This document shows positions 33,916 to 64,000 of a stretch of DNA of 64,000 bases, piece by piece; position 1 is the stretch's first letter; each line of letters opens with the position of its first letter. Source of the stretch: Thermodesulfobacteriota bacterium (lineage in GTDB: Bacteria > Desulfobacterota > BSN033 > UBA1163); assembly GCA_035625415.1 (NCBI GenBank), contig DASPPQ010000032.1:18866-82865 (forward strand). Reading direction: 5' to 3'. Position numbers and translations under genes: made by a program. The notes beneath the pieces are model-generated. The model worked only from the letters and a program-made list of their open reading frames with translations. It did no database searches and was not told the DNA's origin.

Positions 33916-33964
33916 CACACAGGCCGGAGGCCTGTGCCACCTGTGCTTTGGGAGTTTAAATAAA

Positions 33965-43890: not shown

Positions 43891-43926
43891 CGGCGGTACT
43901 CAAGCGATCATTGCCTGTGCTGTGGC

Positions 43927-44877: not shown

Positions 44878-45018
44878 AAAACCCCCACCCAGCCGCTCCC
44901 CTCGAGAGACTGCGTCACAATCAAGCATGCGAGGGAGGAGGCAGTCGGGTTCCAAAGCTTTAGAACGCGGGTCTTTTAGGTATGGGAGACCGGCGTTGGA
45001 TGAAGCTAAGTCAAGCAG

Positions 45019-46044: not shown

Positions 46045-46801
46045 ACAGAAGCCGCATTTGATAAGCGTAAGTAAGCTGAGAAAACATTACGGTGAAGTAA
46101 AGGCCGTCGATGATATTTCTCTGGAAATTTCTGGAGGCCAAGTGATCACCCTCGTCGGCGCAAACGGCGCAGGCAAGACGACTTTGTTGAACCTGCTTAC
46201 GGGCTTGATCAGACCGGATCGCGGAGAGATCAGTTTACTTGGCGAAAAGATCACCGGGGTTCCGGCCGATCAAAGGGCCAAAAGAGGGGTTGTTAAAACT
46301 TTTCAGCTCGAACATGTATTTGGGGAAATGACGGTTTTTGATAATATGAGAGCTGCCTGCGTCTCAGCCGCAGGGAAGCATTATTCGATGTTCAAGGACA
46401 TCCAAAATGAAAAAGAGATCAATGAAAGAACCGAACATTTACTGGAGCTATTCGATCTATCAAGCGTGAAGGATAGTCTTGTGAAGAACCTGGGGCACGG
46501 TTATAGAAAAGTCATTGATATCGCCATGTGCTTTGCGATGAAACCCAGAATTCTATTGGTTGACGAGCCTACAAGCGGCGTGGGTGAAGAAGAAAAGTAT
46601 CGAACCATGGGTCTATTGATGGATCAAATACAAGCAAACAATCTCGCAGCGATCATCGTAGAACATGATCTTCAGCTCGTAAAGGAATTGTCGAAGGAGA
46701 CGATTGTTATGTGTGATGGGGAGTTCATCGCCAGAGGAACACCGGAACATGTATTCAGCCAGGAAAAGGTCATCGAGATCCTTGTTGGAAAAGGATTTTA
46801 A
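46031..46801 (+). CDS. Liv-type ABC ATPase (LivG-like) with degenerate signature motif, module 1
   Basis: Walker A GANGAGKTT and Walker B LLVDEPTSG. The LSGGQ position reads NLGHGYRKVIDIAMCF. Confidence 0.8.
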   Translation: MSNHEQKPHLISVSKLRKHYGEVKAVDDISLEISGGQVITLVGANGAGKTTLLNLLTGLIRPDRGEISLLGEKITGVPADQRAKRGVVKTFQLEHVFGEMTVFDNMRAACVSAAGKHYSMFKDIQNEKEINERTEHLLELFDLSSVKDSLVKNLGHGYRKVIDIAMCFAMKPRILLVDEPTSGVGEEEKYRTMGLLMDQIQANNLAAIIVEHDLQLVKELSKETIVMCDGEFIARGTPEHVFSQEKVIEILVGKGF

Positions 46802-47488
46802 TTGCTTGAAATAGATAAACTCACGGTTTCTTATGGGTCTGAGAGAGCGGTCAACGAAGTCTCCTTGAAGGTATCGGGCGAAGTCGTCTGCCTGTGCGGC
46901 CGAAACGGCGCAGGCAAATCCACTGTGCTGAAAGCGGTTGCAGGGGTAGTGGATGTAGGTTCTGGTCGGATATTGATGGATGGGCAAGATGTCATCACCA
47001 TCCCCCTTTTCAAGCGGTTGGAAAGCGGTATTGGTTATGTTCCGGAGGATAGAAAGCTCTTCAAAGAGATGACCGTGAGGGAGAATATAGAAGTAGCCAG
47101 AATCGGCGGAAGAGTCTCAGGAAGAAAAGAGATGAATATTGATGAACTCTTGCCGGAACTGGCACGCCTCTATAACAGAAAGAGCAAATTATTGAGTGGA
47201 GGGCAACAGAAAATTGTCAGTATTGCCAGAGCGATCATTACCTCTCCCGGTGTCCTGTTATTTGATGAATTGCTGGAAGGACTCGCACGGTCAATGATGA
47301 TTAGGATTTCTGAGATTGTGGTGAAACTAAAGGCGGAAGGAAAAGACATTCTCTGCGCCGAGTCAAGCTTGGATAAGGCGAGTTATTATGCAGATAGAAT
47401 CATCTGGTTAGAAAAGGGTCAAACCGTCGCAACAGGAAGCCCTGCCGAAATCAAGAAACAAATGATGGATGCCATTAGAGCAAAATAA
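46802..47488 (+). CDS. Liv-type ABC ATPase (LivF-like), module 1
   Basis: Walker A GRNGAGKST and an intact signature LSGGQQKIVSIARAI. The Walker B region is divergent (LLFDELLEGL). ILCAESS replaces LLVEQN. Confidence 0.8.
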   Translation: MLEIDKLTVSYGSERAVNEVSLKVSGEVVCLCGRNGAGKSTVLKAVAGVVDVGSGRILMDGQDVITIPLFKRLESGIGYVPEDRKLFKEMTVRENIEVARIGGRVSGRKEMNIDELLPELARLYNRKSKLLSGGQQKIVSIARAIITSPGVLLFDELLEGLARSMMIRISEIVVKLKAEGKDILCAESSLDKASYYADRIIWLEKGQTVATGSPAEIKKQMMDAIRAK

Positions 47489-47571
47489 GACGCATCTCTA
47501 TTTGGGCTGAAGCAATCTATACTTGGTAAGTGAATTTCACCGTTGATCGGAAATATGAGGTTTTCTGAAAA

Positions 47572-48216
47572 ATGGAAAAAGAAGAAGTTGAATCTTTTTA
47601 TAAAGCCTTAAGGGACACTCATCTTTCCACGATGGAAACGCTTGTGAAGGAGTGCATCGGGAAGGGAGCGTCGCCCATGATTATCCTGAATGAAGGGCTC
47701 ATCGGTGCCATGGCGATAGTCGGCCAGGAGTTCAAGGCGTGTCAAGTCTGGGTGCCAGAAGTCCTTCTGGCTGCAAGAAACATGAACCGGGGAATCGAAA
47801 TCCTCAAGCCAGAGCTCCTCAGGGAGAAATTGCCAAGCAAGGGCACATTTGTTATCGGGACAGTGGAAGGAGATATTCACGACATCGGGAAGAATCTTGT
47901 CACCATGATGATGACGGGCGCTGGATACACGGTGATCGACCTGGGAATCAATGTTCCGAAAGATCGATTCCTGGAAGTCATTCCAAAGGAGCAACCAGAC
48001 CTGGTTGGCCTCTCCGCCCTTCTCACCACGACGATGCTCAAGATGAAAGATGTCATAAGGGCGATCCGCCAATCCGTATCTAACCCTCCGAAGATCATTG
48101 TGGGTGGCGCCCCGGTTACCCAAACATTTGCCGACGAGATTGAAGCAGACGGCTATGCGGAAGATGCGGTCAGGGCAATGGAGTTGGCCAACCGTCTGCT
48201 TTCAAGAGGAGGATGA
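47572..48216 (+). CDS. Corrinoid (cobalamin-binding) protein, MtaC/MtbC-like, module 1
   Basis: N-terminal B12-binding_2 helical cap. Cobalamin-binding motif GTVEGDIHDIGKNLVTMMMTGAGYTVIDLG (DxHxxG...G.G) in a Rossmann domain. Confidence 0.85.
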   Translation: MEKEEVESFYKALRDTHLSTMETLVKECIGKGASPMIILNEGLIGAMAIVGQEFKACQVWVPEVLLAARNMNRGIEILKPELLREKLPSKGTFVIGTVEGDIHDIGKNLVTMMMTGAGYTVIDLGINVPKDRFLEVIPKEQPDLVGLSALLTTTMLKMKDVIRAIRQSVSNPPKIIVGGAPVTQTFADEIEADGYAEDAVRAMELANRLLSRGG

Positions 48217-49259
48217 GGATGGAAAGCGGTCTTCGATCTACGCCCAAGCGTCGATTCCTTTCAGGTCTCCTCGGAGGGAGGAAAGGAAACCGAATATGCG
48301 TAGCCAACCCCACTTCAATCGTTTCGGTTGAATTGATGGAGAAAACAGGTGTCTATTTCCCGGAAGCTCATCTGGATCCTTTAAAAATGTCTCAACTCGC
48401 AGCAAGTGGATGTGAAATCCTGGGTTTTGACTCCATTATGCCGGAGTTTAGTGTCCAGCAGGAAGCTGAGGCTTTGGGATGTGTGGTCGATTGGGGAAGT
48501 CCCACCATGATGCCAGATGCTAAAACGCATCCTGTGAAAGAGGTGGAGGACCTTACCATTCCTGACAATATTCTTGAAAAACCTTCAATGGCGGTCGTGC
48601 TCAGAGCTCTGGAAATCTTGAGCCGAACCTATGGAGACCGCGCCGCCATTGTCGGGAAAGTGATGGGCCCATGGACGATTTCATATCATCTGTGCGGTGT
48701 CCAGGATTTTCTGATTTGGACCTTGACTGAGCCAGAAAAGGTGAAGGAGCTTCTCCGTCAGCTCAAGGAGGTATCGATAACATTTGCCAATGCCCAATTT
48801 CGCGCTGGCGCGGATGCGGTCGTGATTGCGGATCATGCGACAGGAGACCTTGTTAGCCCCAAGGCCTATCAGGATTTTCTCCTTCCTGTTCATCAGGAGA
48901 TGAATCGGCGGATTGGAGGACCAACCATCCTTCACCTCTGCGGGAACTGCTCTGACCGACTGAGGCTCTTTGTCGAGGCTGGTTTTGACGCCTACCATTT
49001 CGAATGGCAGGTAGAGGCCAAGATGGCTGTTCAAGAGGTCAATCATGAAATGTCTCTCATTGGTAATATTGCTAACAAAAATGTGCTCTTCGGAGGAACT
49101 CCGGAGGACGTTTATAAACAAGCCCGTTACAGCATACAGGCTGGTGTGGATATCCTTGCTCCGGAATGCGCTGTTCCTCTCCAAACTCCACTTGCAAACC
49201 TGAAGGCGATCGTCGAGGCAGCCAAAGAAGGTTACGGAGCTCAGGGGCTTCAGCCCTGA
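48213..49259 (+). CDS. URO-D-family methyltransferase (MtaA/CmuA-like, HxCxxC zinc motif), module 1
   Basis: The N-terminus RRFLSGLLGGRKGNRICVANPTSIVSVELMEKTGVYFPEAH matches the MtaA N-terminus. Putative Zn ligands lie in ILHLCGNCSD. Confidence 0.8.
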   Translation: MRMESGLRSTPKRRFLSGLLGGRKGNRICVANPTSIVSVELMEKTGVYFPEAHLDPLKMSQLAASGCEILGFDSIMPEFSVQQEAEALGCVVDWGSPTMMPDAKTHPVKEVEDLTIPDNILEKPSMAVVLRALEILSRTYGDRAAIVGKVMGPWTISYHLCGVQDFLIWTLTEPEKVKELLRQLKEVSITFANAQFRAGADAVVIADHATGDLVSPKAYQDFLLPVHQEMNRRIGGPTILHLCGNCSDRLRLFVEAGFDAYHFEWQVEAKMAVQEVNHEMSLIGNIANKNVLFGGTPEDVYKQARYSIQAGVDILAPECAVPLQTPLANLKAIVEAAKEGYGAQGLQP

Positions 49260-49676
49260 TTAATAGCCCTAGAAGGTTGAGTTATGAAAGCCGATCGAAC
49301 TCAATATGCCGAGCAACAAGAAAGTCCGCTATTTCTGACGGCCTTTTAGATCCCCACTTTCGCCAGGAGAAGCTTTCATCTTGGCAACGTCCCACTCTTC
49401 CGCACAGTTACCCATGCAGTCCCATCGGCGCTGAAGAGCTTAACTTCCGCACTAGGGATGGGGATGAGTATGACCCCTTGGGACAACTCGTGATCTTATC
49501 CTTAAGTTCAAGATAGTTGGACTACTCAGGCTTCGGTCCTACTATTTGATCAATCATTTGGCATTGACAATCACATATTAGTAGAATAGATATCAATACT
49601 ATGTATCAGAAATTGGGAGAGCCATGATCTGGGAGCTTCTTTTTATTTGTTACCATTTTAAGAAAGGAGGATAGAG

Positions 49677-50972
49677 ATGGAAAGGACAAGGCGTGAATTT
49701 GTAAAGTTAGTTGGAGGGGCGGCTTTGGGTGCAGGCGTGATACTTGCAGGTCAAGGCAGGGCAAGGGCGCAGGCCAAAACGTTTAAGGGAGTACCGTCAG
49801 AGCCGATAAAGATTGGGGCGATGCCAGGTTTGGCGGGTGTGATCGCTGTACCCGGTACCGCAGCCTGGCGCACGACCCAGATGTGGGTGGAAGAGGTCAA
49901 CGCAGCCGGCGGCATACTTGGAAGGAAGATCGAGCTCTTCATGGAAGAGGAAACGAGTGCCAAGGACTGCGTGGAACGGTTCAGAAAACTCACCCTGGAA
50001 AAGAAGTGCGATGTGATTGTAGGTCTGATGTCGACTGGGAACGGACTCGCCGTCGGACCGGTGGCAGAGGAAATGGGCCAATTATGGCTCTCTTGGGACG
50101 CCACAACCCAGAAAGGCGTTGAAGAAACAATGCCCAAGACCAAATTTGTTTTTAAAAGTACTGATAACGAGGCAGAAGCCATTGGAGGCGCGATCCTGAC
50201 AGCGAAATTTTTCCCCAATATTAAAACCGTCGCTGGAATTAACAATGATTACTCCTACGGTCGAGACTGCTGGGATACTTACCAGGCAGTTCTCAAGAAT
50301 TTTCTTCCCAACGTAAAATTTGTTGAAGCCCTATGGCCGAAATTGGGCGAGACTGATTTTACTTCCCATATCGCTGCCCTCAAAAAGGCCAATGCGGATT
50401 TGATCATGACCAGTTTTTGGTCCGGAGATGTACCCGTTCTAATGAAACAGGGAACAGCGGCTGGCCTTTTTAAGAAGAGCAAAGCCTGCTTTACCACCGG
50501 GGGTGGTGCCCATTATACCCTCAAGAAAGAATTCACCCCGGAAGGGATTATCCTCGGGTATAACAGCTACTATTTCAGGTGGACGGATACCTGGCCATTG
50601 CTCAAGAAATTCAACAAGTCGTACCATGAAAAATACAAGGAATACCCCGTCTATGAGTGTGACCATGCCTACTTTGTTCTCCAGGCCTACAAAGCTGCGG
50701 TGGAGAAATGCTATAACCTTTTTGGTAAATGGCCGACAAAGGAAGAGATCGGGAAGGCCCTGAGTGGTATCGAAGTGCCATCGATTTCCGGCTTAAGGGG
50801 ATACAGGGAAGATAACATTATGACCTGCAACTTCTTCCAGGGTCTCACCACATATAAGAATCCCTACGATTTCGTCACCATTAGTCCAATAGAAGTTCTG
50901 ACACCGGTACAGATTATGAAACCCACTGCTGGAGAGAAGTTGTACGATTGGATTAAGGGATGGAAATCTTAG
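49677..50972 (+). CDS. Liv-type ABC substrate-binding protein with Tat signal, module 2
   Basis: Tat motif TRREFVKLVGGAALGAGVILA. Peripla_BP_6-type fold (PIKIGAMPGLAGV...GGILGRKIELFMEEE). Confidence 0.8.
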   Translation: MERTRREFVKLVGGAALGAGVILAGQGRARAQAKTFKGVPSEPIKIGAMPGLAGVIAVPGTAAWRTTQMWVEEVNAAGGILGRKIELFMEEETSAKDCVERFRKLTLEKKCDVIVGLMSTGNGLAVGPVAEEMGQLWLSWDATTQKGVEETMPKTKFVFKSTDNEAEAIGGAILTAKFFPNIKTVAGINNDYSYGRDCWDTYQAVLKNFLPNVKFVEALWPKLGETDFTSHIAALKKANADLIMTSFWSGDVPVLMKQGTAAGLFKKSKACFTTGGGAHYTLKKEFTPEGIILGYNSYYFRWTDTWPLLKKFNKSYHEKYKEYPVYECDHAYFVLQAYKAAVEKCYNLFGKWPTKEEIGKALSGIEVPSISGLRGYREDNIMTCNFFQGLTTYKNPYDFVTISPIEVLTPVQIMKPTAGEKLYDWIKGWKS

Positions 50973-51062
50973 AATCTTTTCAGGCCCCCTCGCTCCCTTT
51001 TCTTCTAAGGGGGGGATCGGGGTCGGCTGGAAGAAAAGGAAGCGAATCATTTTGACGGGAAG

Positions 51063-51950
51063 ATGATCGAGACAATTCTTAACATACTCTTTAGCGGCGT
51101 TTTTAATGCATCAACCCTTTTTCTGGTTGCAGCAGGGCTTCAAGTCGTCTTCGGTGTGCAGAAGGTCTTCAACCTGGCGTGTGGCACGTTCTATGCCCTC
51201 GGAGCCTATGTTGGTATTACAGTGGTAAAAAGCCTTGTCGCGGGGGGATTCCCAACTCCGCTATTCATTGTTCCGCTGATTATGGCTGGGTTATTGCTGG
51301 GCTTCATCGGGCCTATTTTTGAACGTGGGCTGATCAAGTTTGTCTATGACCGGGATGAGACGTTCCAGCTCCTCTTGACCTTTGCCATGGTGATGATGAT
51401 TGAGGACATCATTAAGTTCATCTGGGGGACGTCTCCGCAGACCATGGGAGGCATTGACCTCGTTTATGGACAACTGAATATTTTGGGAGCCACGATTCCG
51501 GTTTACAACCTCATTGTCATCGGATGTAGTTTCGGCATGGCGATCCTGATCGGATACATTCTCTTGAATACGAAGTTCGGCCGGACTATTCGTGCGGCCG
51601 CAGACAAGAGGGAGATGAGTGAGGCCCTGGGCATCAATATGACCTGGATCTATGTCAAGGTTTTCACCCTGGGAACAATTCTTGGGACATTGGGTGGCGC
51701 TTTGGTCATCCCTGCTGGTGCGGCCGTCTCAGAGATGGGCGTGGAGTTGATCGTCCTGGCTTTTGCTGTTGTTGTTATTGGCGGGCTTGGAAGCATGAAG
51801 GGAGCCTTTGTCGGTGCCCTGGTAGTGGGAGTGTTGAAGTCGATCGCCATTTCAACTTATCCGGAACTCGAAATGCTCACGATCTATATCATCGTGATTG
51901 TCGTTCTAGTGATCAAACCTCAAGGACTGTTCGGAGGTGGTAGAGTTTAA
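51063..51950 (+). CDS. Liv-type ABC permease (LivH-like), module 2
   Basis: 295-aa BPD_transp_2 family permease. Confidence 0.8.
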   Translation: MIETILNILFSGVFNASTLFLVAAGLQVVFGVQKVFNLACGTFYALGAYVGITVVKSLVAGGFPTPLFIVPLIMAGLLLGFIGPIFERGLIKFVYDRDETFQLLLTFAMVMMIEDIIKFIWGTSPQTMGGIDLVYGQLNILGATIPVYNLIVIGCSFGMAILIGYILLNTKFGRTIRAAADKREMSEALGINMTWIYVKVFTLGTILGTLGGALVIPAGAAVSEMGVELIVLAFAVVVIGGLGSMKGAFVGALVVGVLKSIAISTYPELEMLTIYIIVIVVLVIKPQGLFGGGRV

Positions 51951-52933
51951 TGCGAAATCGGCGGGAGGTAACGGCCCTTAAGAGTTTTAGGATAGTGTCA
52001 CTCGTTGTGGGCGGCCTTTTTTTGCTTGGGTTGCCGCTGTGGACAAGTCAATTCATCAGTTATTTGATGCTGACGTTCTTTGCTTATGCAATTACCGTGA
52101 TCGGTTTCAATCTTCTCTTTGGATATACTGGCCTCTTGTCTTTCGGCCACGCCCTTTTTATGGCCGTGGGCGCTTACACGGCAGCCTTCCTGACGTCAAA
52201 ATTTTCATTCCATTATATGGAGATCATACTCGTTGTGGCCGTGATCGTGGCTTCTCTCCTGGCTGCATTGATCGGGGCCATTTGCGTCCGGTACATCAAA
52301 ATTTACTTTGCAATGCTCACCCTGGCTTTCGGGATGCTCTTTTACACATTCCTGCTAAAGTTCTATTACCTGACCGGAGGGGACGAAGGGATGCGTGTCT
52401 TGAGGCCTTATCTGTTGGGGTTCAACTTTTCTGAGATTCCCAAGATGCAATTTCTTACGGGAAGCTATTATCTTTATACGTTTGCCCTTCTGGCCGTCCT
52501 TACTTTCGTCATGTGGAAAATTGTCTCTTCGCCTTTGGGGCTGTGTTTGAAGGCGATCAGGGATAATCCCGAGAAGGCTGAATACCTGGGGGTGAGTGTC
52601 AGGAAATACCGATGGTTCGCATTTGTCATTTCCGGGGCTTACGCTGCGATTGGCGGAGCGCTCCTGGCTCCTGCCATCGGCCAGGTGGATCCAGGGCTGA
52701 CTTATTGGACTCATTCGGGGACTCTGGTTTTTATGACGCTCCTCGGGGGCTTTGAAAACTTTCTCGGCCCTCTGATTGGCGGCGTCGTCTATATTTTCCT
52801 TCAGGACAAGGTAATGTCTCTTACACAGTATTGGAGGTTTATCTTTGGAGGTATCCTTGCGTTTATCGTCATTGCGGCACCGGGGGGTATCGCCGGGATG
52901 ATCAGTTCTTTGGTGAGAAGGAGAAAGAGTTGA
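51950..52933 (+). CDS. Liv-type ABC permease (LivM-like), module 2
   Basis: 327-aa polytopic LivM-family permease. Confidence 0.8.
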   Translation: MRNRREVTALKSFRIVSLVVGGLFLLGLPLWTSQFISYLMLTFFAYAITVIGFNLLFGYTGLLSFGHALFMAVGAYTAAFLTSKFSFHYMEIILVVAVIVASLLAALIGAICVRYIKIYFAMLTLAFGMLFYTFLLKFYYLTGGDEGMRVLRPYLLGFNFSEIPKMQFLTGSYYLYTFALLAVLTFVMWKIVSSPLGLCLKAIRDNPEKAEYLGVSVRKYRWFAFVISGAYAAIGGALLAPAIGQVDPGLTYWTHSGTLVFMTLLGGFENFLGPLIGGVVYIFLQDKVMSLTQYWRFIFGGILAFIVIAAPGGIAGMISSLVRRRKS

Positions 52934-52950
52934 ACGAAGCAAGGGGGAAG

Positions 52951-53739
52951 ATGATTCTTTCTGCAGAAGATCTTCATAAGCACTATGGGGAGTTCTGTGC
53001 TTTGGGTGGAGTCAGTTTTCAGGTCTACGAAGGAGAGTTTATCTCCATCATCGGACCGAACGGAGCGGGGAAGACTACTTTGATCAATGTCTTGACCGGC
53101 CTGCTGAAACCGAATCGAGGAAGAGTCTTTTTTAAAGAAATGGAGATTACGGGGATCGGTCCTGAGAGGCTTTCCAGATTAGGACTTGCCCGGAGTTTTC
53201 AACTGGTCAACATTTTCCCAAATTTTACTGTCCTTGAATTTCTGATGGTTGCCATTGTTTCAAGACTCGGCAAAGTAAAGAACTTTTTCTCATCGCTCCT
53301 TCGTGACCAGGAGGTAACCGAAGAGGCGTTGGTAGTGGCAAAGCTCTTCGGGCTCGACGAGAAAAGGGATATGCTCACTAAGAATTTGCCCCAAGGGGAC
53401 AAAAAGATGCTCGATGTGGCGTCTGCCTTTGCCCTCCATCCGGAGGTCATCTTACTCGATGAACCGACCAGCGGCGTGAGCACGAGCGACAAGAACAAAA
53501 TTATGGAAACGCTAGTATCTGCATCGAAGAAGATTGGGATTAAATCGATCATCCAAGTGGAACACGACATGGATATCGTCTTTTCGTACTCGGATCGGAT
53601 CATTGCCCTGCATCAGGGGAAGATCCTTGCGGATGGCGCCCCAGAAAAGATCGAAAAGGATGAAGAGGTGGTATGCACGGTGGTGGGGCAGAAGGAATGT
53701 TTCAAGATCTTCAGGGCCGTATTGAACAGAGAGAATTGA
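52951..53739 (+). CDS. Liv-type ABC ATPase (LivG-like) with degenerate signature motif, module 2
   Basis: Start at the ATG after RBS aagggggaag. Walker A GPNGAGKTT and Walker B ILLDEPTSG. The signature position reads LPQGDKKMLDVASAF. Confidence 0.8.
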   Translation: MILSAEDLHKHYGEFCALGGVSFQVYEGEFISIIGPNGAGKTTLINVLTGLLKPNRGRVFFKEMEITGIGPERLSRLGLARSFQLVNIFPNFTVLEFLMVAIVSRLGKVKNFFSSLLRDQEVTEEALVVAKLFGLDEKRDMLTKNLPQGDKKMLDVASAFALHPEVILLDEPTSGVSTSDKNKIMETLVSASKKIGIKSIIQVEHDMDIVFSYSDRIIALHQGKILADGAPEKIEKDEEVVCTVVGQKECFKIFRAVLNREN

Positions 53740-53751
53740 AGGCAACTCACG

Positions 53752-54462
53752 ATGATACTCGAAGTTAAAAACCTCAATGTATATATTAAGGCCAGTCACA
53801 TTATCAGAGATGTGGCGATCCAAGTGGGGGAAGGGGAGGTCGTCTGTCTCATCGGAAGAAATGGGGCGGGGAAAACCACCCTTCTCAGATCGATTATGGG
53901 ATTTCTGAAACCTGAGGCAGGTACCGTCAGGTTCAAAGGGGAGGAGATGAAAGGATTAACTCCTCATGAGATCGCTCTGAAGGGGATGGGCTTTGCTCCT
54001 GAGGAAAGCGAAATTTTCGCTGATTTAACCACCTTAGAAAATATTGAGATCGCGACATGGACTCGAAAAACGTCTCGTTCAGCAGAAGAAAGGATCAGGC
54101 TTGCTTATTCTGTATTTCCATCTTTGGAAAGATATAAGGCGAGAAAGGGGACACAGATCAGTGGAGGAGAGAGAAAAATGCTCTCCATCGCGAGAGCTCT
54201 TGCCATGGACCCTCACATGTTGTTGCTCGATGAGTCCTTCGAAGGGCTCTCACCTGGCATCATCCCCCAAATTGCGGAGAGCATCCATGAGATTGCCAAG
54301 ATGGGCCGCTCGATCTTTCTTGCCGAGTCCAACATCTACCATGTCCCTGATTTCACGGATAGGGTTTACGTGATCGAGCGAGGCGAGATTATTTTTTCGG
54401 GAAAACCTGAAGCGTTGATAAAGGATAAAGCCGTCCTGAAGATTGTGGCAGGAGCTGCTTAA
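53752..54462 (+). CDS. Liv-type ABC ATPase (LivF-like), module 2
   Basis: Walker A GRNGAGKTT, signature ISGGERKMLSIARAL and LLLDESFEGL. IFLAESN replaces LLVEQN. Confidence 0.8.
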   Translation: MILEVKNLNVYIKASHIIRDVAIQVGEGEVVCLIGRNGAGKTTLLRSIMGFLKPEAGTVRFKGEEMKGLTPHEIALKGMGFAPEESEIFADLTTLENIEIATWTRKTSRSAEERIRLAYSVFPSLERYKARKGTQISGGERKMLSIARALAMDPHMLLLDESFEGLSPGIIPQIAESIHEIAKMGRSIFLAESNIYHVPDFTDRVYVIERGEIIFSGKPEALIKDKAVLKIVAGAA

Positions 54463-54685
54463 TAGAATAGTAAAGGGGAGAGGGGAAGGGTGAGGGGAGG
54501 TCATTTGGAATTAGAATTTACGCGGAACGGTTTGAAACCGTTCCCTACAAGGATTTACCTGCCTGCTCTGTACCATATTAGGTTCAGGGCCTGCCGGTAG
54601 GCAGGGAATTTGTGATTTGGGATTTTGAACGCTGTGCGCTCCGCGCTTAGCGCTATGCGTATCTTCTAAATGAGGGAGGGTTAAC

Positions 54686-55327
54686 ATGCCTGAGACGACA
54701 ACTGTGAAAGAGGAACTTAAAGAGGCCATCATCAAGGGGAAGCGGGATGCGGTCGAGCCATTGATTCGAAAGGCCTTGTCCGAGGGATTAAGACCCGAAG
54801 AAGTCATGGATAAGATGATGATCCCCGCCATGGACGTGGTAGGAGACCGGTTTTCCCGAAATGAGATTTTTCTGCCGGAGATGATGATTGCCGCCCGGGC
54901 GATGAACACAGGACTGGATATCCTCCGCCCGATGCTCGTTGCACAAGGACTTTCGAGCAAAGGGAAGGTGGTGATCGGTTCGGTGAAAGGCGACATCCAC
55001 GATGTGGGGAAGAGCATCGTCTCAATGGTTCTTCAAGGGGCCGGGTATGAGGTCATCGATTTGGGAATCGATACTCCGCCCGAGAAATTCGCCGATGCCG
55101 TGAGGCAGCATCAGCCCAGGTTTGTGCTGATGTCCGCTCTTCTCACTTTGACCATGTCGATGATGGAAGAGACGATCAAAGCTCTCAAGCAGACAGGGCT
55201 AAGGGAAAAAGTGAAAGTTGGCGTGGGAGGAGCTCCACTCACCCAGAGTTTTGCGGATCGAATTGGGGCAGACTTTTACGGCAAAGATGCCCGCGCCGCT
55301 GTGATAAAATGCAACGAGTTAATTTGA
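54686..55327 (+). CDS. Corrinoid (cobalamin-binding) protein, module 2
   Basis: Motif GSVKGDIHDVGKSIVSMVLQGAGYEVIDLG. Paralogue of the 47572 protein. Confidence 0.85.
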   Translation: MPETTTVKEELKEAIIKGKRDAVEPLIRKALSEGLRPEEVMDKMMIPAMDVVGDRFSRNEIFLPEMMIAARAMNTGLDILRPMLVAQGLSSKGKVVIGSVKGDIHDVGKSIVSMVLQGAGYEVIDLGIDTPPEKFADAVRQHQPRFVLMSALLTLTMSMMEETIKALKQTGLREKVKVGVGGAPLTQSFADRIGADFYGKDARAAVIKCNELI

Positions 55328-55345
55328 AATGATGGGGGATAGAAC

Positions 55346-56443
55346 ATGAAACCAAGGGAAAGAATTCTAACCGCACTAAGGAGAGGGACTCCGGATCAGG
55401 TTCCCTGGATAGAGAATGATATTGAAGAAGGCCTTCAGGAAAGAATCATGGGCACGACCGACTTCACGCCCGGTGACCTCTGCGAGAAGCTCGGAATGGA
55501 TGGCTTTGGGTATCATTTCCCGATGGGCGGGAAAGCGACTGCGGGCCAGGCCATGCAGGCAGCTGTGGGGTTCAAGGAAAGTTACTATTATCCGCAAAAG
55601 GTGACCTTCGATTTCGTCCCTCCCTGGATTTCGGAGATGGGAGTCACTGAAAGCGGTCGGACGTTTATCAAAAAGGGGCTCCTTACTTCCAAGGATTCCT
55701 TAAAACTTTTTGATGAATATCTTCCCGACCCGGATCATCCAGCCCGGTATGACAAGGTGTCTAAGTGGATCGCTCAATTCAAGAGGGACTATGCGGTCTT
55801 CGCGAGAATCCGATTGGGTTCCGCTTCGTTGCTTGAAAGTATGGGAGTCGTCGAGTTCGCTTATAATGTCTACGATAACCCAGACCTAATCAAAGAAGTC
55901 CATCAAAGGTTCTCAGAATGGTCGGCGAAAGTCGTGGAACATCTGAACCAAATGGATTTTGATTATTACTGGGCAAATGATGACCATGCCGATACGAAAT
56001 CGACCTGGATGAGCCGGGAACAGTATCGAGAATTTTTCTTGCCCTATCAAAAGATTGTGGCGAATGTCATGAAGAAACCCTGGGTTTTTCATAGCGATGG
56101 CAATCTCATGCCCATTCTGGACGACCTGCTTACCTTGGGGATGAACGGACTTCACCCCATTCAACCCGCCGCCATGGACATCAAAGAAGTCAAAGCCAAA
56201 TACGGGCAAAAGGTCTGCATTCTTGGTAACGTCGATCTCGATTATACCCTTACCCTTGGAACACCCGACGAGGTGGATAAGGAAGTGAAGGAAAGAGTCG
56301 CTGTCGCTGGACCCCGAGGTGGGTACATTGTGACGAGCGCCAACAGTCTGACAGATTACTGCAAGACCGAGAATGTTTGGGCCATGGCCCGTGCCATCAA
56401 GAAATACGGGAAGTACCCATTGGACCCAAATTTATTCAAATAG
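55346..56443 (+). CDS. URO-D-family methyltransferase-like protein lacking the HxC zinc motif, module 2
   Basis: N-terminus RILTALRRGTPDQVPWIEND is of the URO-D/MtaA type. The Zn-motif position reads VFHSDGN, with no Cys. Confidence 0.65.
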   Translation: MKPRERILTALRRGTPDQVPWIENDIEEGLQERIMGTTDFTPGDLCEKLGMDGFGYHFPMGGKATAGQAMQAAVGFKESYYYPQKVTFDFVPPWISEMGVTESGRTFIKKGLLTSKDSLKLFDEYLPDPDHPARYDKVSKWIAQFKRDYAVFARIRLGSASLLESMGVVEFAYNVYDNPDLIKEVHQRFSEWSAKVVEHLNQMDFDYYWANDDHADTKSTWMSREQYREFFLPYQKIVANVMKKPWVFHSDGNLMPILDDLLTLGMNGLHPIQPAAMDIKEVKAKYGQKVCILGNVDLDYTLTLGTPDEVDKEVKERVAVAGPRGGYIVTSANSLTDYCKTENVWAMARAIKKYGKYPLDPNLFK

Positions 56444-56517
56444 TTTTTGCCCCTCATCTTGTCCGTCTTCAGCCCTATTTCCTCCCCCTTGACGGGGGAG
56501 GGTGAAGGTTGGGGTGA

Positions 56518-57327
56518 ATGAAGGTTGAATCCATGCTGATCGTCGGAGAAAGAATCAACGCCTCTCGAAAGCCTATTGCCGAAGCCATCGCCTCACGTAA
56601 CGCCGTCTTTATTCAGAATGAAGCAAAGGCTCAGGCCATTGCAGGAGCTAACTATCTCGATGTCAACGCCGGGACGTTTGTGGGAGAAGAGGCGAGACAT
56701 CTCCAGTGGGTTATCGAAACAGTTCAGGAAGCCGTAGCCCTTCCCTTATGCATTGATAGTCCGGATCCTTCTGTGATCAAGGCGATGATTCCTTTGGCAA
56801 AGAAAACTCCGATGATTAATTCCATCACACTGGAGCCCTCACGGTTGGAAGGAATCCTGCCGTTAATTGTTAAGCATAAGACCAAGGTCATCGGTCTTTG
56901 CCAATCGGGAGACGCTATTGCTGATACCGCAGAGGCAAAAGTGAAAATGGCTGGACAGTTGATTGAGGGCGTGAAGGCTGCGTCCATTCCTCTGGATGAC
57001 CTCTACATCGATCCCCTCGTCTATCCCCTCGCGACGAATGACAGGTCAGCGTTGGCCACACTTAATGCCATGGAGCAGATCATAACCCAATTTCCGGGTG
57101 TTCATACCACTTGTGGCCTAACGAACGTTTCTTACGGACTCCCGAACCGAAAGCTTGTCAATCGAACCTTTCTTGTGGCGGCCATCGCTCGTGGTCTGGA
57201 TTCCGCTATCCTGGACCCTACTGACAAAGAGCTCTTCGGCGCTCTCAAGGCCGCTCTTCTGGTTTCCGGCAAGGATGAATTCTGCATGGGATATATCTCA
57301 GCCTTTCGCGAGGGAAGGTTTGAGTAA
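56518..57327 (+). CDS. Pterin-binding methyltransferase (methyl-corrinoid:tetrahydrofolate methyltransferase, MetH/AcsE/MtgA-like)
   Basis: Motifs IVGERINASRK, ANYLDVNAG, GLTNVSYGLPNR and AILDP match the DHPS-like pterin-binding TIM barrel of MetH and methyl-THF:corrinoid methyltransferases. Confidence 0.85.
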   Translation: MKVESMLIVGERINASRKPIAEAIASRNAVFIQNEAKAQAIAGANYLDVNAGTFVGEEARHLQWVIETVQEAVALPLCIDSPDPSVIKAMIPLAKKTPMINSITLEPSRLEGILPLIVKHKTKVIGLCQSGDAIADTAEAKVKMAGQLIEGVKAASIPLDDLYIDPLVYPLATNDRSALATLNAMEQIITQFPGVHTTCGLTNVSYGLPNRKLVNRTFLVAAIARGLDSAILDPTDKELFGALKAALLVSGKDEFCMGYISAFREGRFE

Positions 57328-57360
57328 ATTTATTGACTGATCGCGTATAGCTGGTCGCGG

Positions 57361-58026
57361 ATGGCAAACATAAAATACCTGGTGATCGCCTGTAATATTA
57401 TGAAGGACGAGATTCTCCGTTTTCAGGCCAACGGAATCTCCTTCGTTTTCTTGGAGCAGTCCCTCCATCGAACGCCCCAGAAGATGAAGCCGATCATTCA
57501 GGCGGAGATCGACAAGGCTGAAGAACAGGATTGGGATTACATTATTTTGAGCTATGGGCTTTGCAGTAACGGGATCTTGGGTGTCAAGTCGAAAAATCAT
57601 CCCATCGTCATTCCTCGTGTCCACGACTGCATTGCTCTTTTTCTTGGCTCGTGGGAAAAATACATTGAGGAGCACAGGAAGGAACCGGGCACCTACTATT
57701 TGACCAAGGGATGGATCGAAGAGGGCAAATCGCCTCTCGGAATATTTCAGGAATATTGTCAGCGCTACGATAAAGAGACGGCCGAATGGGTGATCAGGGA
57801 GGAGTTGAAGAACTACACGAGAATTGTGTTGGTGGACATGGGTGCCGAGTCGGAGGCCCTTCGGGAACATGCGAGGGAGAACGCGCATTTCCTCAATTTG
57901 AGGTATGAGGAGATGAGAGGGTCTTTGGAATTTTTTGAGAAGATGCTCCAGGGATGCTGGGATAAGGATTTTATCATCTTGAAACCCGGTGAAGAAGTAA
58001 CACAGGAATTATTTTTAGATCTTTAG
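57361..58026 (+). CDS. DUF1638-like protein (family recurrently found next to corrinoid methyltransferase genes)
   Basis: 221-aa soluble protein sitting between the methyltransferase and the activator remnant. The family assignment is from memory and was not computed. Confidence 0.4.
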   Translation: MANIKYLVIACNIMKDEILRFQANGISFVFLEQSLHRTPQKMKPIIQAEIDKAEEQDWDYIILSYGLCSNGILGVKSKNHPIVIPRVHDCIALFLGSWEKYIEEHRKEPGTYYLTKGWIEEGKSPLGIFQEYCQRYDKETAEWVIREELKNYTRIVLVDMGAESEALREHARENAHFLNLRYEEMRGSLEFFEKMLQGCWDKDFIILKPGEEVTQELFLDL

Positions 58027-58065
58027 CCGACTTTTGTCTTACTTTGCTTTTTATAAGAAGAATCG

Positions 58066-58976
58066 ATGAAAAAGTTTGAAATAATCTTTCAACCTTCGGG
58101 GGTGAGAGGTGAAGTTTTGGAGGCAAAGAGCATCCTTGAAGCCTCGAGGGAATTGGGGGTCGAAATAGAATCTCTCTGTGGAGGGAAGAGGGCCTGCGGC
58201 AAATGCAAGGTTAAGTTGGTGGAAGGGTCCCTTTCGGCCTTCACGGATGATGAAGCCAAGTTCATCACGGAAAGAGAAAGAGTTGAGGGTTATCGACTTG
58301 GATGCGCGGCTCAGATTAGAGGAGATGTTTCAATTCTTGTGCCCGAGGAGAGCCGTCCCGGAAAGCAGGTGCTCAGAAAGGCGGCTACCGGAAGATCAAT
58401 TGAACTGAATCCTGCGATCCATCCCTACTATGTCGAACTCTCCCTACCATCACTCGAGATCCTCATGGAGATCTTGATCGGCTTAAAAAGGGACTTTTCG
58501 AAAAGTATCATCTCTCCTCACTCCGTATCGATTACCATGCCTTGTTAAGGCTTCCGACGCTTCTGCGGCAGGGAAATTGGAAAGTCACTGTTGCCGTATG
58601 GATGGAGAAAGAGATTCTGGATGTCAAGCCTGGAAAGCTAGAGGATGCTTATGGGTTGGCTGTCGATGTTGGAACCACAACAGTTGCTGCCTATCTCTGC
58701 AATCTCAGAAGCGGAGAGGTGATAGCGACTGAATTGATGATGATTCCTCAGATCAGTTACGGTGAGGATGTGATGTCAAGAATCACTACTTTGACCCATC
58801 CAGAGGACGGTCTTGAAAGGATGCACAGGTTGATTATTGACGGACTGAACCAATTGGTCAGAGATATCACCGGAAAATGCCACCTCGGCGCAGAGGATAT
58901 TTTAGAGTTGACCTTTGTGGGTAACACTGCCATGCATCATTTCTTTATGAAGATCGATCCTCGGTACCTAGTGTAG
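58066..58976 (+). pseudogene. RACE-type reductive activator of corrinoid enzymes (RamA/RACo-like), frameshifted and truncated
   Basis: The N-terminal 2Fe-2S ferredoxin domain reads CGGKRACGKCKV...GCAAQI. A -1 frameshift lies near 58460-58540 (frame +2 ...SLPSLE, frame +1 ...DPHGDLDRLKKGLFEKY). The ASKHA domain begins LAVDVGTTTVAAYL...VGNTAMHHFFMKIDPRYLV, then hits a stop at 58976. Only about 300 of an expected 550-650 aa remain. A repeat element starts 27 nt downstream. Confidence 0.65.
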
Positions 58977-59002
58977 TGCGTCCAACACTTCTTTACAAAA
59001 GT

Positions 59003-59089
59003 TCAGAAGCTATCATTCCTGCAAAAGCAGGAATCCAGTTGAAATCATTGGATTCCCCCGTGTCAAGCACGGGGCAAGCTTGGTCAAGC
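59003..59089. repeat. REPIN-like doublet element, third copy (atcattcctgcaaaagcaggaatccag ... ccggaatgac)
   Basis: Same bipartite architecture and termini as the copies at 28684 and 32610. Related partial copies occur at 59379-59405 and 54580-54600 (cctgccggtaggcagg hairpin). Confidence 0.6.
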
Positions 59090-59734
59090 CCGGAATGACA
59101 TTCAAAGTAAAGGGACTTCTGACGCAGTAAACCAGTTGCATAACCTTATCTTCCCATTTATTCTTCGTAAGAACTTAAAATTAGTATCCGGCCGAATTCT
59201 CCTAGTGTTCTAAACCACTTTTTAAACAATCCCGCAGGCGTATCGGTCCCCATCCTCCAGTGCCCCCTAACCACCTAAATCATTTTGCTTGTATGGGATG
59301 GCAGGAGCTGAGACCCGGGTCGCTCGTCGGAACCGCTGCGTTTTGTGAAGCCTGCTGAGCAATCCTTCATGACGCGAGCGTCATTCCTGCCTGCCGGTAG
59401 GCAGGGCCGATGGTGGGGCAGGCAGGCTCAAACCATGAAAAACATAAATCCCCCCCGTCCCCCTTTAGTAAAGGAGGGTTGGGGGGATTTGCAAATGTAT
59501 CTTTCAGGCAATAATGTTACCGTTAACACAAATGTCCATGTTACAATTAGCACAACCGTGTTTATTTCGAGTCAGGCGCGGCATCAAATAAAATATATAT
59601 GAGATAATATATTGAAATAATTTAGAAATAAATTTTACATTCACTTTGATAAAAAATTCACTTTTTTGTTGAAACTTTAGGTTATTGGTTCTATAATTAT
59701 GGCCAATTCATAACTCAGAACGGAGGAAATTAAT

Positions 59735-61006
59735 ATGGGTAGAAAAGGCTGGTTAGTCACTTTCTCAGGAATGGGTTTGAATCTGGCTTTAGGCGTCTTA
59801 TATTCATGGAGCGTTTTTGGCAAGCAGTTTACAGAGGCTATTGATAAAGGCGGTTTTGGCTGGAGCAAAACCAATGCGGCTCTGCCATATACGATAGCCA
59901 TAGCTTTTTTTGCCGCGATGATGGTTCCCGCCGGTCGGCTTCAGGATAAGTTTGGTCCCCGGATTATAGCCACGATGGGTGCCCTGCTAACGGGTTTGGG
60001 GCTCGTCGTAACGAGCTTTGCTTCACCGGGGAATATCTTACCTGCTCTGATCGGGTTCGGTGCTATGGCCGGGACAGGAATTGGTTTAGGATATGCCACC
60101 GCCACCCCTGCGGCGGTGAAATGGTTTCCTCCGGAGAAAAAAGGCTTGATTACGGGTATTGTTGTGAGCGGTTTTGGTCTTGCTTCTGTTTATATCGCCC
60201 CTGTCAGCAGATCTTTTCTTGCTGCCTATGGGGTGAAAGGGGCGTTCTTGATTCTCGGCATCGGTTTTGCCGTGATCACCTTCATCCTGGCCCAATTTAT
60301 AAATAATCCTTCCACTCCTGCCGTGAGTTTGAATCAGAATGCCTCTAAGAACAAGAACAATTATAAGATTGATTATTCCTGGTCAGAAATGCTTAAGACT
60401 CGAACCTTCTACCTCCTCTGGATTGAGTTCGCATGCGGGGCCATGGCAGGCCTGATGATTATTGGACACCTCGCCAAGATTGTATCTGTCCAATCGGGAA
60501 ATGCCATCCAGATCGGGTTCATCTTCGTTGGGCTCCTTGCTATTTTTAACGCCGGAGGTCGTCTCGTTGCCGGTTTGGTATCGGACTATATCGGCCGATT
60601 AAAGACAGTGCTCATTATCTGCTTAAGCCAGGCCGTCGTCATGTTTTTCTTCTCGAGGATTTCGACGGTCCCGACCTTCGTCTTAGGGTCTGCGGTTGTG
60701 GGATTTAGTTACGGGGCCTGTCTCTCTCTGTTCCCCTCGACCTGTGCCGATTATTGGGGAACAAAAAATCTGGGCATGAATTACGGGATCCTTTTTACGG
60801 CATGGGGCGTCGGAGGAGTATTCGGGCCTATCCTCGCTGGTAAGATTGCAGACGCTTCGGGCAATTATAATACGGCCTATATCATCTCGGCCGCTCTGAT
60901 GATTTTTGCCGCTCTCCTCACCTTTTTCACCAAGGTTCCCGAAAGAGAGACGGTAGAGGAATTCTCCCACCCGGTTCTTGCAGGAAAACTACAGACGACG
61001 GATTGA
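59735..61006 (+). CDS. MFS transporter, oxalate/formate antiporter (OFA) family
   Basis: 423 aa with 12 TM helices. N-terminus WLVTFSGMGLNLALGVLYSWSVFGKQF is typical of the OFA family. Confidence 0.75.
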   Translation: MGRKGWLVTFSGMGLNLALGVLYSWSVFGKQFTEAIDKGGFGWSKTNAALPYTIAIAFFAAMMVPAGRLQDKFGPRIIATMGALLTGLGLVVTSFASPGNILPALIGFGAMAGTGIGLGYATATPAAVKWFPPEKKGLITGIVVSGFGLASVYIAPVSRSFLAAYGVKGAFLILGIGFAVITFILAQFINNPSTPAVSLNQNASKNKNNYKIDYSWSEMLKTRTFYLLWIEFACGAMAGLMIIGHLAKIVSVQSGNAIQIGFIFVGLLAIFNAGGRLVAGLVSDYIGRLKTVLIICLSQAVVMFFFSRISTVPTFVLGSAVVGFSYGACLSLFPSTCADYWGTKNLGMNYGILFTAWGVGGVFGPILAGKIADASGNYNTAYIISAALMIFAALLTFFTKVPERETVEEFSHPVLAGKLQTTD

Positions 61007-61022
61007 GACTTGATCCTTTCGG

Positions 61023-61052
61023 AAAAGCCCCCCGCATGGGGGCTTTTTTTTT
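61023..61052 (+). terminator. Rho-independent terminator (aaaagccccccgcatgggggc + T10)
   Basis: 7-bp GC stem followed by a run of 10 T, 17 nt after the MFS stop. Confidence 0.85.
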
Positions 61053-61434
61053 ACCTACTGGCGTTATACTGGTTCCCCAAGAGATTCTCTCGTAATCATG
61101 ATGGAGAAGAGAGGCGGGGACGGAGCAGGCGGTCAGATTCCTCAGCTTTAGGGTCCGGCCATTTAGAGGTATAGGTAATGGAGCTTCTTGCAAATGTAAT
61201 CTTTTCATGGGCCTGCAGCCCGGTAGTTGACCGACAAAAGGTTTCAGCCCTAAAGCTTTGTTACCTGACAGCCCGCTCCGTAATGTTCGGAGAGCGGTTT
61301 CTCGCTCATTACAACACAGTCTCGTTGGGGAGAGGAGAGAGGGTCTGTTGCTTCCGTTTCAAAACTCGCTTAAAATGGATATTTAGATCAAGAAAGGTTT
61401 TTGTAGGCCCTATCCGAACGAGGAGAGTTTGAGC

Positions 61435-64000
61435 ATGCCAAAAGACTTGAAGAGGACGGCCCTTTATCCCTGGCATAAGGAGCACGGCGGGGAAATGGTC
61501 GAGTTTGCCGGTTGGGAAATGCCTGTTGCCTATCAACAAGGCATTCTCGAGGAGCACTTGAGGACAAGGAAATTCGGGGGGCTGTTCGATATCTCCCATA
61601 TGGGACGTTTCTTGATTCGGGGAATAGATGCGGTTCCTTTTATGCAGCATTTCCTGACCAACAATGTGACGGCTCTTGATCCGGGTGTGGCCCAGTATAC
61701 GTTGATTCAGAATGAGGAGGGAGGCTTGATTGACGATGCTTACGTCTATCGGCTGGAAGAAGGGGATCCCTCCCTGGAAACAAATTATCTCCTTGTTGTG
61801 AACGCGGCGAATAAGGAGAAAGATTGGAATTGGTTTCTCGATCATAAGAAACGGTACAAGAATGTGGTGATGGACGACAAAACCGATGAAATCGGAATGA
61901 TCGCACTGCAAGGTCCTCACGCCAGGAGGGTTTTAGAAAAAATTCTCTTAGAAGATCATACAAAACTTCCTGACCCGTGGAGAAATCGATTAAGGGTGTG
62001 TGAGTTAGAGGGAGAGCACGTCCATATCACGATCTCAAGAACAGGATACACGGGTGAGCCCATCTGTTTCGAACTATTTTTGCCCGGGGAGAAGCTAAGG
62101 CTCATATGGGAGAAGATCCTCGGCACGGGAGAGGAAGAGGGGATCGTTCCAGTGGGCTTAGGGGCAAGGGATACCCTGAGGCTGGAAGCAGGACTTCCCC
62201 TTTATGGTCACGAGTTAGGGCTGGATGCGCAAGGAATCGATATCCCGATTTACGCGGTCCCTTCGGCGGCAAGATTGGCCATGAGTTTCTCTCCCCTAAA
62301 AGGAGAATTCATCGGAAGGGATATCCTGAAAAGGCAATTTGAAGAGGTGACGGCAAGAGAAAGTGGAAAACCTTTACCTCCTAAAGAAAGACAGTTAGTT
62401 CCTAAGAGGATATTCCCGATCACCCTCACCGGCCAGGGGATTGCCAGACAGGGCTACGAGGTTTTTGCAAACGGGGAGCTGGTTGGACATGTGTCGAGCG
62501 GGACGATGGTTCCCTATTGGGTCTTCTCGGATCGAGGGATCCTTTCAGAGCCCACAGACGAAAAAAAAATGAGATCGATCGGCCTTGCTTATATCGATTC
62601 AGATTTGAAGGAAGGCCAGAAGGTAGAAATTTCTTACCGGGGGAAGAAGGTCGAAGGGGTGATCGTAGAAAGGCATCTTTCCAGCGAAGCTCCGCCTTAT
62701 GCTCATCCCATCCTGATACAAGAACCGAGGAAGATGCGTGCTCCGACGGGAAGCTTAAAAGACTTGTCTGAAAGACTTGTCCGTCGTGTGGCGGAGAATA
62801 CCCATTGGAGACAGAGAGAGACAGTCAATCTCATCCCTTCGGAATCGACCCCTTCTCTTCTTGTGAGACTTCTCACGGTTTCAGACCCATCGGGCCGATA
62901 CGCCGAACACCGGTTGATGAAGGCCTTTAAGGAAAGCGATGTCTTCTATTATCAGGGGACCAAGTTGATCGGAGAAGTGGAGGCTCTGGTTGCCGATGAG
63001 CTTCGACGCTTCATCGGATGCTCGGAAGTCGAGGCGAGGGTGATCAGCGGCCAGATGGCCAATACCGCTGTCTTCAGCGGAATCGTCGATTACCTCAACC
63101 GTTTGGACCGGAGAAGGGAGCCCCGCAGGATCAGAAAGGTGATGAACCATCATATCGGGAGGGGAGGGCATCTGAGCGCTCAGCCCATGGGCGCCTTGAA
63201 AGATTTTATCGCTAACAATCCAACGACAGAAAGGCCGGCGGCCGTCCCTTTCCCAGTGATGAAGGATGACCTATACAGGATCGATCTTTTGAAGACCCGT
63301 GAACTGTTGGAAGAGCATAAGCCCGAATTGATCGTAATGGGCAAGAGCATGGTCATCTATAAAGAGCCTTTAAGGGAGATTGCCGAAATGATCTCCCATG
63401 TCAATCCAAAACCGATCCTTCTTTACGACATGGCCCACGTCCTGGGACTGATCGGACCTTATTTCCAGGAGCCCTTTAAGGAAGGTGCGGATATTGTGAC
63501 AGGGTCCACCCATAAGACTTTCTTCGGGCCGCAAAGAGGGATCATTTCGAGTAACATGTCGGAGGAGACGGAATATGAGGAGCTCTGGGAAGCTATCGTC
63601 CGTAGGGTCTTTCCCGGTAGCGTCAGCAATCACCACCTGGGAACACTGGTGGGCCTCTTGCTCGCTGCCTATGAAATGAATGCCTTCAAATCAAATTATC
63701 AGAAAGAGGTGATCTCCAACGCCAAGGCATTTGCCCGTGGCCTAAAGAATCAGGGATTAATGGTGGAGGGAGACCCACGCCTCGGATATACGGAGACACA
63801 TCAGGTGATCGTCAGGGTTGGCTATGGAAAGGGGCCATGGGTGGCCGAACGATTGGAAGAAAATAACATTATCGTCAATTACCAGGGTGCGCCGGATGAC
63901 GAGGCCTTTACGACAGCGAGCTGCCTGAGGATGGGGGTTCAGGAAATGACGCGGTTCGGGATGAAAGAAGACGATTTTGCTCAACTGGCGGAGTACATGG
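61435..64000 (+). CDS. gcvT: Fusion protein: aminomethyltransferase (GcvT) N-terminal domain + serine hydroxymethyltransferase-like C-terminal domain; 3' end beyond window
   Basis: Single frame with no stop from ATG 61435 to 64000, checked codon by codon. Absent from the ORF track because it has no in-window stop. The N-terminal ~370 aa align with full-length GcvT ([48 protein letters not shown]). The C-terminal part carries SHMT motifs [21 protein letters not shown] and PLP-Lys [13 protein letters not shown]. Confidence 0.8.
   Translation, partial: [855 protein letters not shown]

Follow-up and report, generated by a model that had tools for sequence, protein, structure and literature searches.

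The segment at 58066-58976 on the forward strand of the window (the whole 64,000-nucleotide stretch of DNA that was analysed) is a unitary pseudogene of a RACE-type reductive activator (RACo/RamA/AE family), and it is real and decaying. The first 302 of ~637 codons are kept, encoding 47% of the full protein. Activators of the RACE type are ASKHA ATPases that bear a flexibly tethered [2Fe-2S] domain and carry out the ATP-driven reduction of corrinoid Co(II) to Co(I) (PMC7317905, PMC6739815). An earlier note on this DNA had described the locus as a frameshifted, truncated remnant of such an activator ending at a dispersed repeat, and the Pfam analysis, the alignment to the RACo structure 3ZYY and the relatives of 622-650 aa all agree with that description. 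The account as a whole, comprising the pseudogene, a history linked to a miniature inverted-repeat element (MITE) and the servicing of the corrinoid proteins in trans, is considered very probable.

The remnant is read in two open reading frames that sit in different frames. The first (58066-58548, 160 aa) matches the Pfam Fer2 domain (E = 2e-11) and the start of RACo_linker; the second (58542-58976, 144 aa) matches the end of RACo_linker and profile positions 1-107 of the 163 in Raco_middle (E = 2.5e-34). Part 1 of the pseudogene (58066..58455, + strand, codons 1-130) runs to the frameshift and covers the plant-type [2Fe-2S] ferredoxin domain as well as the first portion of the linker. In tblastn it shares 73-76% identity with relatives, and it aligns to 3ZYY from residue 1. 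The Fer2 cysteine ligands C38, C44, C47 and C80 do not vary in the alignment of the family. Part 2 (58458..58971, + strand, codons ~132-303, -1 frame) comprises the rest of the linker and the 107 of 163 Raco_middle positions, contains the motifs DVGTTT and GNTAMHH, and loses homology at ...DPRYL(G). The linker (PF17650) is present but is split by the frameshift, and Raco_middle (PF17651) is incomplete, with the break falling mid-domain and not at a domain border.

When the two frames are joined, the 302 residues correspond to residues 1-313 of the 631 in RACo of Carboxydothermus hydrogenoformans (3ZYY; phmmer E = 5e-44), and are 60-83% identical to many metagenomic homologues. The C. hydrogenoformans protein (PDB 3ZYY, 4C1N) has the same N-terminal order of plant-type [2Fe-2S] domain, linker and start of the ATPase core, and its ATPase-core motifs DVGTTT and GNTxMHH are shared by the remnant. 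Unlike RACo, the remnant has no PF14574 (RACo_C_ter/DUF4445) and carries a frameshift at codon 131, and it is not a working member of the family. In a first homology search all of the best homologues appeared to be truncated; this was rejected as an artefact of cluster representatives and error-rich assemblies, and a 637-aa member was found to share a cluster with the 419-aa representative P0002.

The start of an ASKHA/DUF4445 ATPase domain had also been proposed at this locus. Raco_middle with its DVGTTT motif is indeed present; PF14574/DUF4445 proper, the C-terminal ASKHA ATPase part, is wholly absent, with no Pfam match at the remnant, and in L001-L029 the same part follows directly. The C-terminal halves of four relatives (residues 304-637), searched by tblastn against the whole 64-kb window, gave no match even at E ≤ 10, in keeping with the earlier statement that nothing downstream continues the gene. 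An uninterrupted reading frame of ~620-650 codons is missing from the window, whereas 17 relative loci have reading frames of 622-650 aa, the closest of 637 aa. With PF14574 missing altogether and Raco_middle short by a third, the remnant is predicted to be unable to work as an ATP-dependent activator.

The -1 shift noted earlier arose when an ancestral GG at 58455..58456 (+ strand) was reduced to a single G, which changes CTCGGAGAT to CTCGAGAT. The window reads CTCGAGAT at 58453-58460; the 99%-identical sister contig L013 and all relatives read CTCGGAGAT. The frame moves between ...LSLPSLE and DPHGDLDRL..., at codon 131. The G at 58455/58456 is kept in L013, L044, L046 and all intact relatives. 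Further downstream, similarity to the intact relatives stops at 58967-58971 (tblastn extends to 58966-58973). The preceding homology ends in ...DPRYL, the window carries CTAG at 58968-58971, and the intact relatives run on past the break as ...DPQYLGVSPF.... Since the repeat begins where the RACo homology ends, the TAG stop codon of the remnant (58974-58976) is repeat sequence. At the site corresponding to the break, TATTTAGGAG is found in the closest intact relatives, so that a YTAG site existed where the element now starts.

The repeat itself is a MITE-like element of 168 nt (58968..59135, + strand) with imperfect terminal inverted repeats, CTAGTGTAGTGCGTC ... GACGCAGTAAACCAG, and nested hairpins (DNA fold z = -3.9). 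It had been placed at 59003-59089, 27 nt after the stop; its true extent puts the stop codon inside the repeat. The terminal inverted repeats match at 12 of 15 positions in this copy and at 14 of 15 in the L043b copy. Further copies were identified in the window at 28653-28820 and 32590-32719, both on the - strand, and as a fragment at 18229-18263; outside the window they occur in L043 (13305-13493) and L032 (8338-8462). The element is thus short (<500 nt), non-coding and present in at least five copies at unrelated loci within ~100 kb. The full copies all have CTAG or CTAG-like bases at their boundaries, and these may be either a target-site duplication or part of the terminal inverted repeat. 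The right flank of the 58968-59135 copy is not RACo sequence, and no target-site duplication is therefore demonstrable there.

The element has the look of a MITE, and calling it REPIN-like, as was done earlier, goes further than the data. Its resemblance to REPINs lies in its shortness, its palindromic sequence with strong hairpins and its dispersal between genes. However, REPINs consist of two inverted REPs mobilised by RAYT transposases, whereas here there is one 168-nt unit with 15-nt terminal inverted repeats and CTAG ends. No RAYT gene was found within the window by Pfam, and no parent insertion sequence or transposase for the repeat was seen in the sequence examined. We take the CTAG ends to resemble IS5-type YTAR targets. 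As in known cases of gene inactivation by insertion of a MITE or IS with adjacent deletion or repeat recombination, a short, non-autonomous, multi-copy element with terminal inverted repeats lies exactly at the break, and alternative junctions occur at the element within one population; the present case differs from these in that the parent IS was not found and no target-site duplication can be demonstrated at the 58968-59135 copy. Permissive Rfam scans of 58900-59760 and 41400-42620 gave nothing beyond a sub-threshold match of the MITE core to FtrB (28.5 bits against a threshold of 66), which was taken as chance.

The proteins of the neighbouring DUF1638 and MFS genes, searched for exact matches, led to some 20 contigs of the same population, 97.7-99.97% identical and derived from several ENA and JGI assemblies. 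The truncation is common to ten contigs of this ~99%-identical population; RACo is left at 58968 in every contig that reaches that base, and the 3' half is present in none. The deletion of G58456 is carried by the window and by seven independent contigs (L033, L043, L045, L047, L048, L049 and L051), and the three without it have other inactivating mutations. An additional G after 58791 is present in L013, L044, L046 and L048, and L013 and L044 carry C58519G, which creates a TGA stop. L048 has in addition a 5-nt deletion (58109-58113) at codon 15, inside the ferredoxin domain, which indicates that the ferredoxin part is not maintained either. The lengths of the remnant reading frames vary by strain (143, 151, 160 and 250 aa). 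The lesions are biological and are not sequencing errors. As the truncation is shared and the secondary lesions differ, the truncation is old, and the point lesions are younger and strain-specific.

The remnant evolves neutrally and its neighbours do not. Over its 300 codons, the window and strain L044 differ by 11 nonsynonymous and three synonymous changes, compared with 18 nonsynonymous and 34 synonymous changes in nine flanking genes together (Fisher p = 0.005). Between the same two sequences the remnant has ~15 differences per kb, against 0-13 in its neighbours. The Fer2 part alone shows four nonsynonymous and two synonymous changes between strains. Relative to the nearest intact relative, L004, dN/dS is mildly raised in the remnant (0.23, against 0.10-0.18 for intact genes), which fits a fairly recent inactivation. 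As a rough estimate, the gene was inactivated before the strains split and well after their split from L004.

Beyond the remnant, 58977-59734 contains no convincing gene, as had been noted for the stretch after the remnant. The spacer on the MFS side of the junction (59136..59734) is non-coding and is where the strains diverge most (18 differences in 608 nt); it adjoins the MITE and the MFS gene in both RACo-linked and DctP-linked contigs. The MFS gene starts at 59735 and has its own promoter-like site at 59669-59697 (promoter scan 11/12). Three arrangements were observed around the repeat. That of the window, in which the truncated gene (RACo') is followed by the MITE, the spacer, the MFS gene and GcvT/SHMT, is spanned in L033/L042, L044 and L051; L013 extends to 59167 and L045 to 59153, and two different haplotypes are represented. 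In L043, RACo' and the MITE are followed by a TPR lipoprotein gene, and the MITE is cut off at 59110 and lacks one nucleotide at 59089. In L032 and L036, DctPQM genes precede the same MITE, spacer and MFS gene, and identity to the window starts exactly at 58968. Because of differences at 58977 and 59089, the MITE copies of the RACo-linked and DctP-linked contigs have at most ~111 identical bases in common. This is less than the k-mer size of 141 that the ENA contig names (k141_) suggest, and by this reasoning both arrangements are regarded as real and not as assembler chimeras. The delG allele occurs in both arrangements following RACo', and a non-delG allele also occurs in that of the window, which calls for either recurrent recombination or allele movement (gene flow) between strains.

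A repeat-associated deletion, which had been thought plausible, fits the evidence, since the strains differ in the sequence joined to the repeat and the L043 repeat is cut at 59110. With a tentative order of events and a tentative direction of change between arrangements, the simplest history likely has four steps. The 168-nt MITE would first have inserted at the YTAG site across codons 302/303 (Leu-Gly). A deletion would then have taken away the MITE's right tip together with the gene's 3' half, a step that the state of L043 fits. In some strains, including that of the window, this MITE may subsequently have recombined with a direct-repeat copy upstream of the MFS gene (DctP/MFS), which would have placed the remnant beside the MFS and GcvT-SHMT genes; both arrangements are observed, and it is the direction of change that we infer. 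Neutral decay completed the sequence, a step documented by the strain-specific lesions, delG58456 being the one in the window.

Many contigs end inside or just after the repeat (L034, L035, L045-L049), two different continuations follow it, and L001, a distant relative, belongs to an assembly in which many genes are split, all of which would suit an assembly or sequencing artefact in which the frameshift is a homopolymer error, the join through the dispersed repeat is chimeric and the real gene is intact. Such a reading is already largely refuted and is extremely improbable: seven independent ENA and JGI contigs share the same 1-nt deletion while those without it have other lesions, all contigs reaching 58968 leave RACo at the same base with no 3' half in any, the RACo'-MITE-MFS junction recurs in at least four further assemblies and two haplotypes (L033/L042, L044, L051, L013), the identity shared by MITE copies is, by the reasoning above, too short to be joined at k = 141, and the substitution pattern of the remnant is neutral. 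A functional product from the remnant, either a working stand-alone [2Fe-2S] ferredoxin or one half of a split activator whose ATPase half is encoded elsewhere, is very unlikely. While the 160-aa reading frame has an intact Fer2 domain with its four cysteine ligands and a start codon within the operon, and some RamA-like genes are naturally split, as reported for a Roseobacter (PMC5764234), the excess of nonsynonymous over synonymous changes in the Fer2 part, the codon-15 deletion in L048 and the variable lengths of the reading frame among strains all argue against maintenance of the ferredoxin; the break lies in the middle of Raco_middle instead of at a domain border, and no second half is found within the visible 74 kb.

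The rearrangement might also have been an inversion or translocation between MITE copies instead of a deletion, in which case the 3' half would survive elsewhere beside another copy. This is unlikely, even though the element is multi-copy (at least five in ~100 kb) and demonstrably mediates alternative junctions in the population, and clusters A and B stand in another order than in L001. RACo 3' sequence lies beside none of the five MITE copies identified and was not seen in the same-population contigs that were fetched, and the L043 MITE, truncated at 59110, looks like a deletion end. The reading of the locus as a pseudogene, truncated with deletion at the MITE, is preferred. For annotation, it should be entered as a pseudogene and not as a ferredoxin followed by a hypothetical protein. 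The locus offers a small, clean case in which a MITE breaks a gene and then serves as a recombination site that reshuffles neighbours within one natural population. The type of gene loss is ordinary, is unusually well documented across strains and leaves the current understanding of RACE enzymes unchanged.

The remnant closes corrinoid methyltransferase cluster B (49677..57327, + strand), after the DUF1638 gene. By Pfam, the cluster consists of a Liv-type ABC transporter, a B12-binding corrinoid protein (54686-55327), a URO-D-type methyltransferase (55346-56443) and a pterin-binding methyltransferase (56518-57327). The DUF1638 gene (57361..58026, + strand; PF07796, E = 7e-45) is intact, and the strains differ in it by one synonymous and no nonsynonymous change; its family usually accompanies RamA-like activators. 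Across the cluster genes together, 17 synonymous and eight nonsynonymous differences were found between strains. Cluster B is syntenic with L001, L006 and L007, in which a full-length RACo ends the cluster, so that the syntenic locus in relatives does hold an intact gene, as the earlier note had proposed to check. RACo of C. hydrogenoformans, one of the RACE-type ASKHA metallo-ATPases (with RamA, the activating enzyme AE/OdmC of O-demethylases, RamQ and AcsV), has the same genomic setting, closing a cluster that carries a corrinoid protein and methyltransferases. A second module of importer, corrinoid protein and URO-D genes is present at 42589-49259.

No second RACE was found in the window or in the ~10 kb upstream of it on the 83-kb contig (~74 kb covered). 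Loss of the cognate activator by the cluster, as the earlier note put it, is supported for this locus and for ~74 kb of the contig and does not extend to the genome as a whole. The rest of the cluster, including DUF1638, is under purifying selection, so the system still seems to operate, and an activator elsewhere is implied. Most likely, a further RACE paralogue encoded at another site in the genome services the corrinoid proteins in trans. The demethylase cluster should not be counted as self-sufficient in cofactor repair.

DUF1638 and DUF4445 (RamA-like) proteins co-occur, and both are required for B12 reactivation in Phaeobacter (PMC5764234). The locus resembles the Phaeobacter/Desulfovibrio pair (Price et al. 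2018, PMC5764234) in that DUF1638 lies directly upstream of the RamA-like gene and that B12-binding and pterin-binding genes adjoin here too. It differs from that pair in that the RamA-like partner is a pseudogene next to an intact, conserved DUF1638, and the presence of URO-D-type methyltransferases and an ABC importer makes the cluster look like a substrate demethylase and not a split methionine synthase.

Different wrecks of the same activator gene are carried by three independent lineages, namely the window population, L014 and L021/L023. The L014 gene has a TGA stop, a mutated motif (DVGTIT) and an internal deletion of ~325 codons, from about residue 296 to the last 13 codons. In L021/L023, the gene is cut at residue ~281 and joined to a glutamate-dehydrogenase-like C-terminal fragment, and L023 has an extra stop. 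The loss of the activator in two other lineages and the retention of DUF1638 in the window population give a hint that one corrinoid activator can stand in for another, which would bear on how metabolic potential is inferred from clusters in metagenome-assembled genomes. A broader proposal, that the cluster-linked RACE is repeatedly dispensable among these uncultured anaerobes and that reactivation may need no cognate RACE, being provided by a generalist in trans or by a RACE-independent route involving DUF1638, is considered quite doubtful.

A stretch without listed reading frames at 61000-64000 was considered as a possible pseudogene desert and rejected, as one GcvT-SHMT reading frame runs off the end of the window. 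Rfam at gathering thresholds gave nothing across the whole window, and a tRNA scan found none. No MITE copies were found at the cluster A/B rearrangement breakpoints (42247 and 49288-49665). The DNA further upstream of the 42589-49259 module holds glycine-cleavage and lipoate genes, and the ~10 kb upstream of the window carries cobalamin salvage genes and a TonB receptor.

A structural comparison of contigs showed that the junctions of the 168-nt MITE-like repeat bordering RACo', the frameshifted, truncated RACo/RamA-type activator pseudogene, are polymorphic within one population of ~99% identity. The sites compared were window 58968-59135, L043 11608-11749, L032 3137-3304 and L036 1498-1665. 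Some strains carry the arrangement RACo'-MITE-MFS, and others carry RACo'-MITE-TPR, with the repeat cut at 59110, along with DctPQM-MITE-MFS. The coexistence of these arrangements suggests MITE-to-MITE recombination by which a segment is deleted or moved.

Further copies or fragments of the MITE family were present in the window at 28653-28820 and 32590-32719 (both on the minus strand) and at 18229-18263, and the glycine-cleavage genes gcvH, gcvPA and gcvPB are flanked by such further copies or fragments. The copies share the core GTCATTCC...GGAATCCAG...GGAATGAC. At 58999-59103, the hairpin-rich MITE core gives a sub-threshold Rfam match to FtrB, the Francisella sRNA B, which is probably due to chance; it scored 28.5 bits (E = 0.02), where the gathering threshold is 66. 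Besides the MITE family, the window contains other short dispersed or palindromic repeats. These include a G-rich CCCCC...GGGGG repeat upstream of two genes (23735-23771 and 56481-56517), an AT-rich 49-nt palindrome after glmS (13726-13849), and a 29-nt inverted pair (33429-33457 and 33914-33942) that brackets the ORF at 33412-33915.

Independent RACo pseudogenes were identified in further lineages. The L014 pseudogene (1315-2250) contains a TGA stop and lacks ~325 internal codons, but its last 13 codons remain. Those of L021 (1923-2795) and L023 (10001-10876) both break off at codon ~281, where a GDH-like C-terminal fragment is attached. In the relative L001 (ERZ25039467 contig_58165, 367 kb), many genes are broken into two or three ORFs, including those for a binding protein, a permease, URO-D and RACo. 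This pattern looks like the indel error of long-read assembly, and frameshifted top matches from such assemblies should not be called pseudogenes.

The two corrinoid/ABC-importer modules are reversed in order between the window and L001. Module A (42247-49288) precedes module B (49665-58962) in the window, whereas in L001 module B with a full RACo (1461-10905) is followed by module A (11991-18946). No MITE copies were found at the module A/B breakpoints in this comparison. Upstream of module A lies a ~340-nt leader (42247-42589), 85% conserved with L001, that starts with a TTGACA-17-TATATT promoter-like site. As no Rfam family matches the leader, it is considered a candidate regulatory leader or riboswitch.

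The region 61435-64000 appears gene-free in the ORF list because its single long ORF, a GCV_T (aminomethyltransferase) domain fused to an SHMT (serine hydroxymethyltransferase) domain, is cut by the window end and thus unlisted; in both L032 and L033 the ORF spans 900 aa. The contig just upstream of the window (L052, 11975-18053) encodes a TonB-dependent receptor, CobU, CobS, CobT and a BtuF-like binding protein. This cobamide salvage and remodelling set fits with heavy corrinoid use by the organism.
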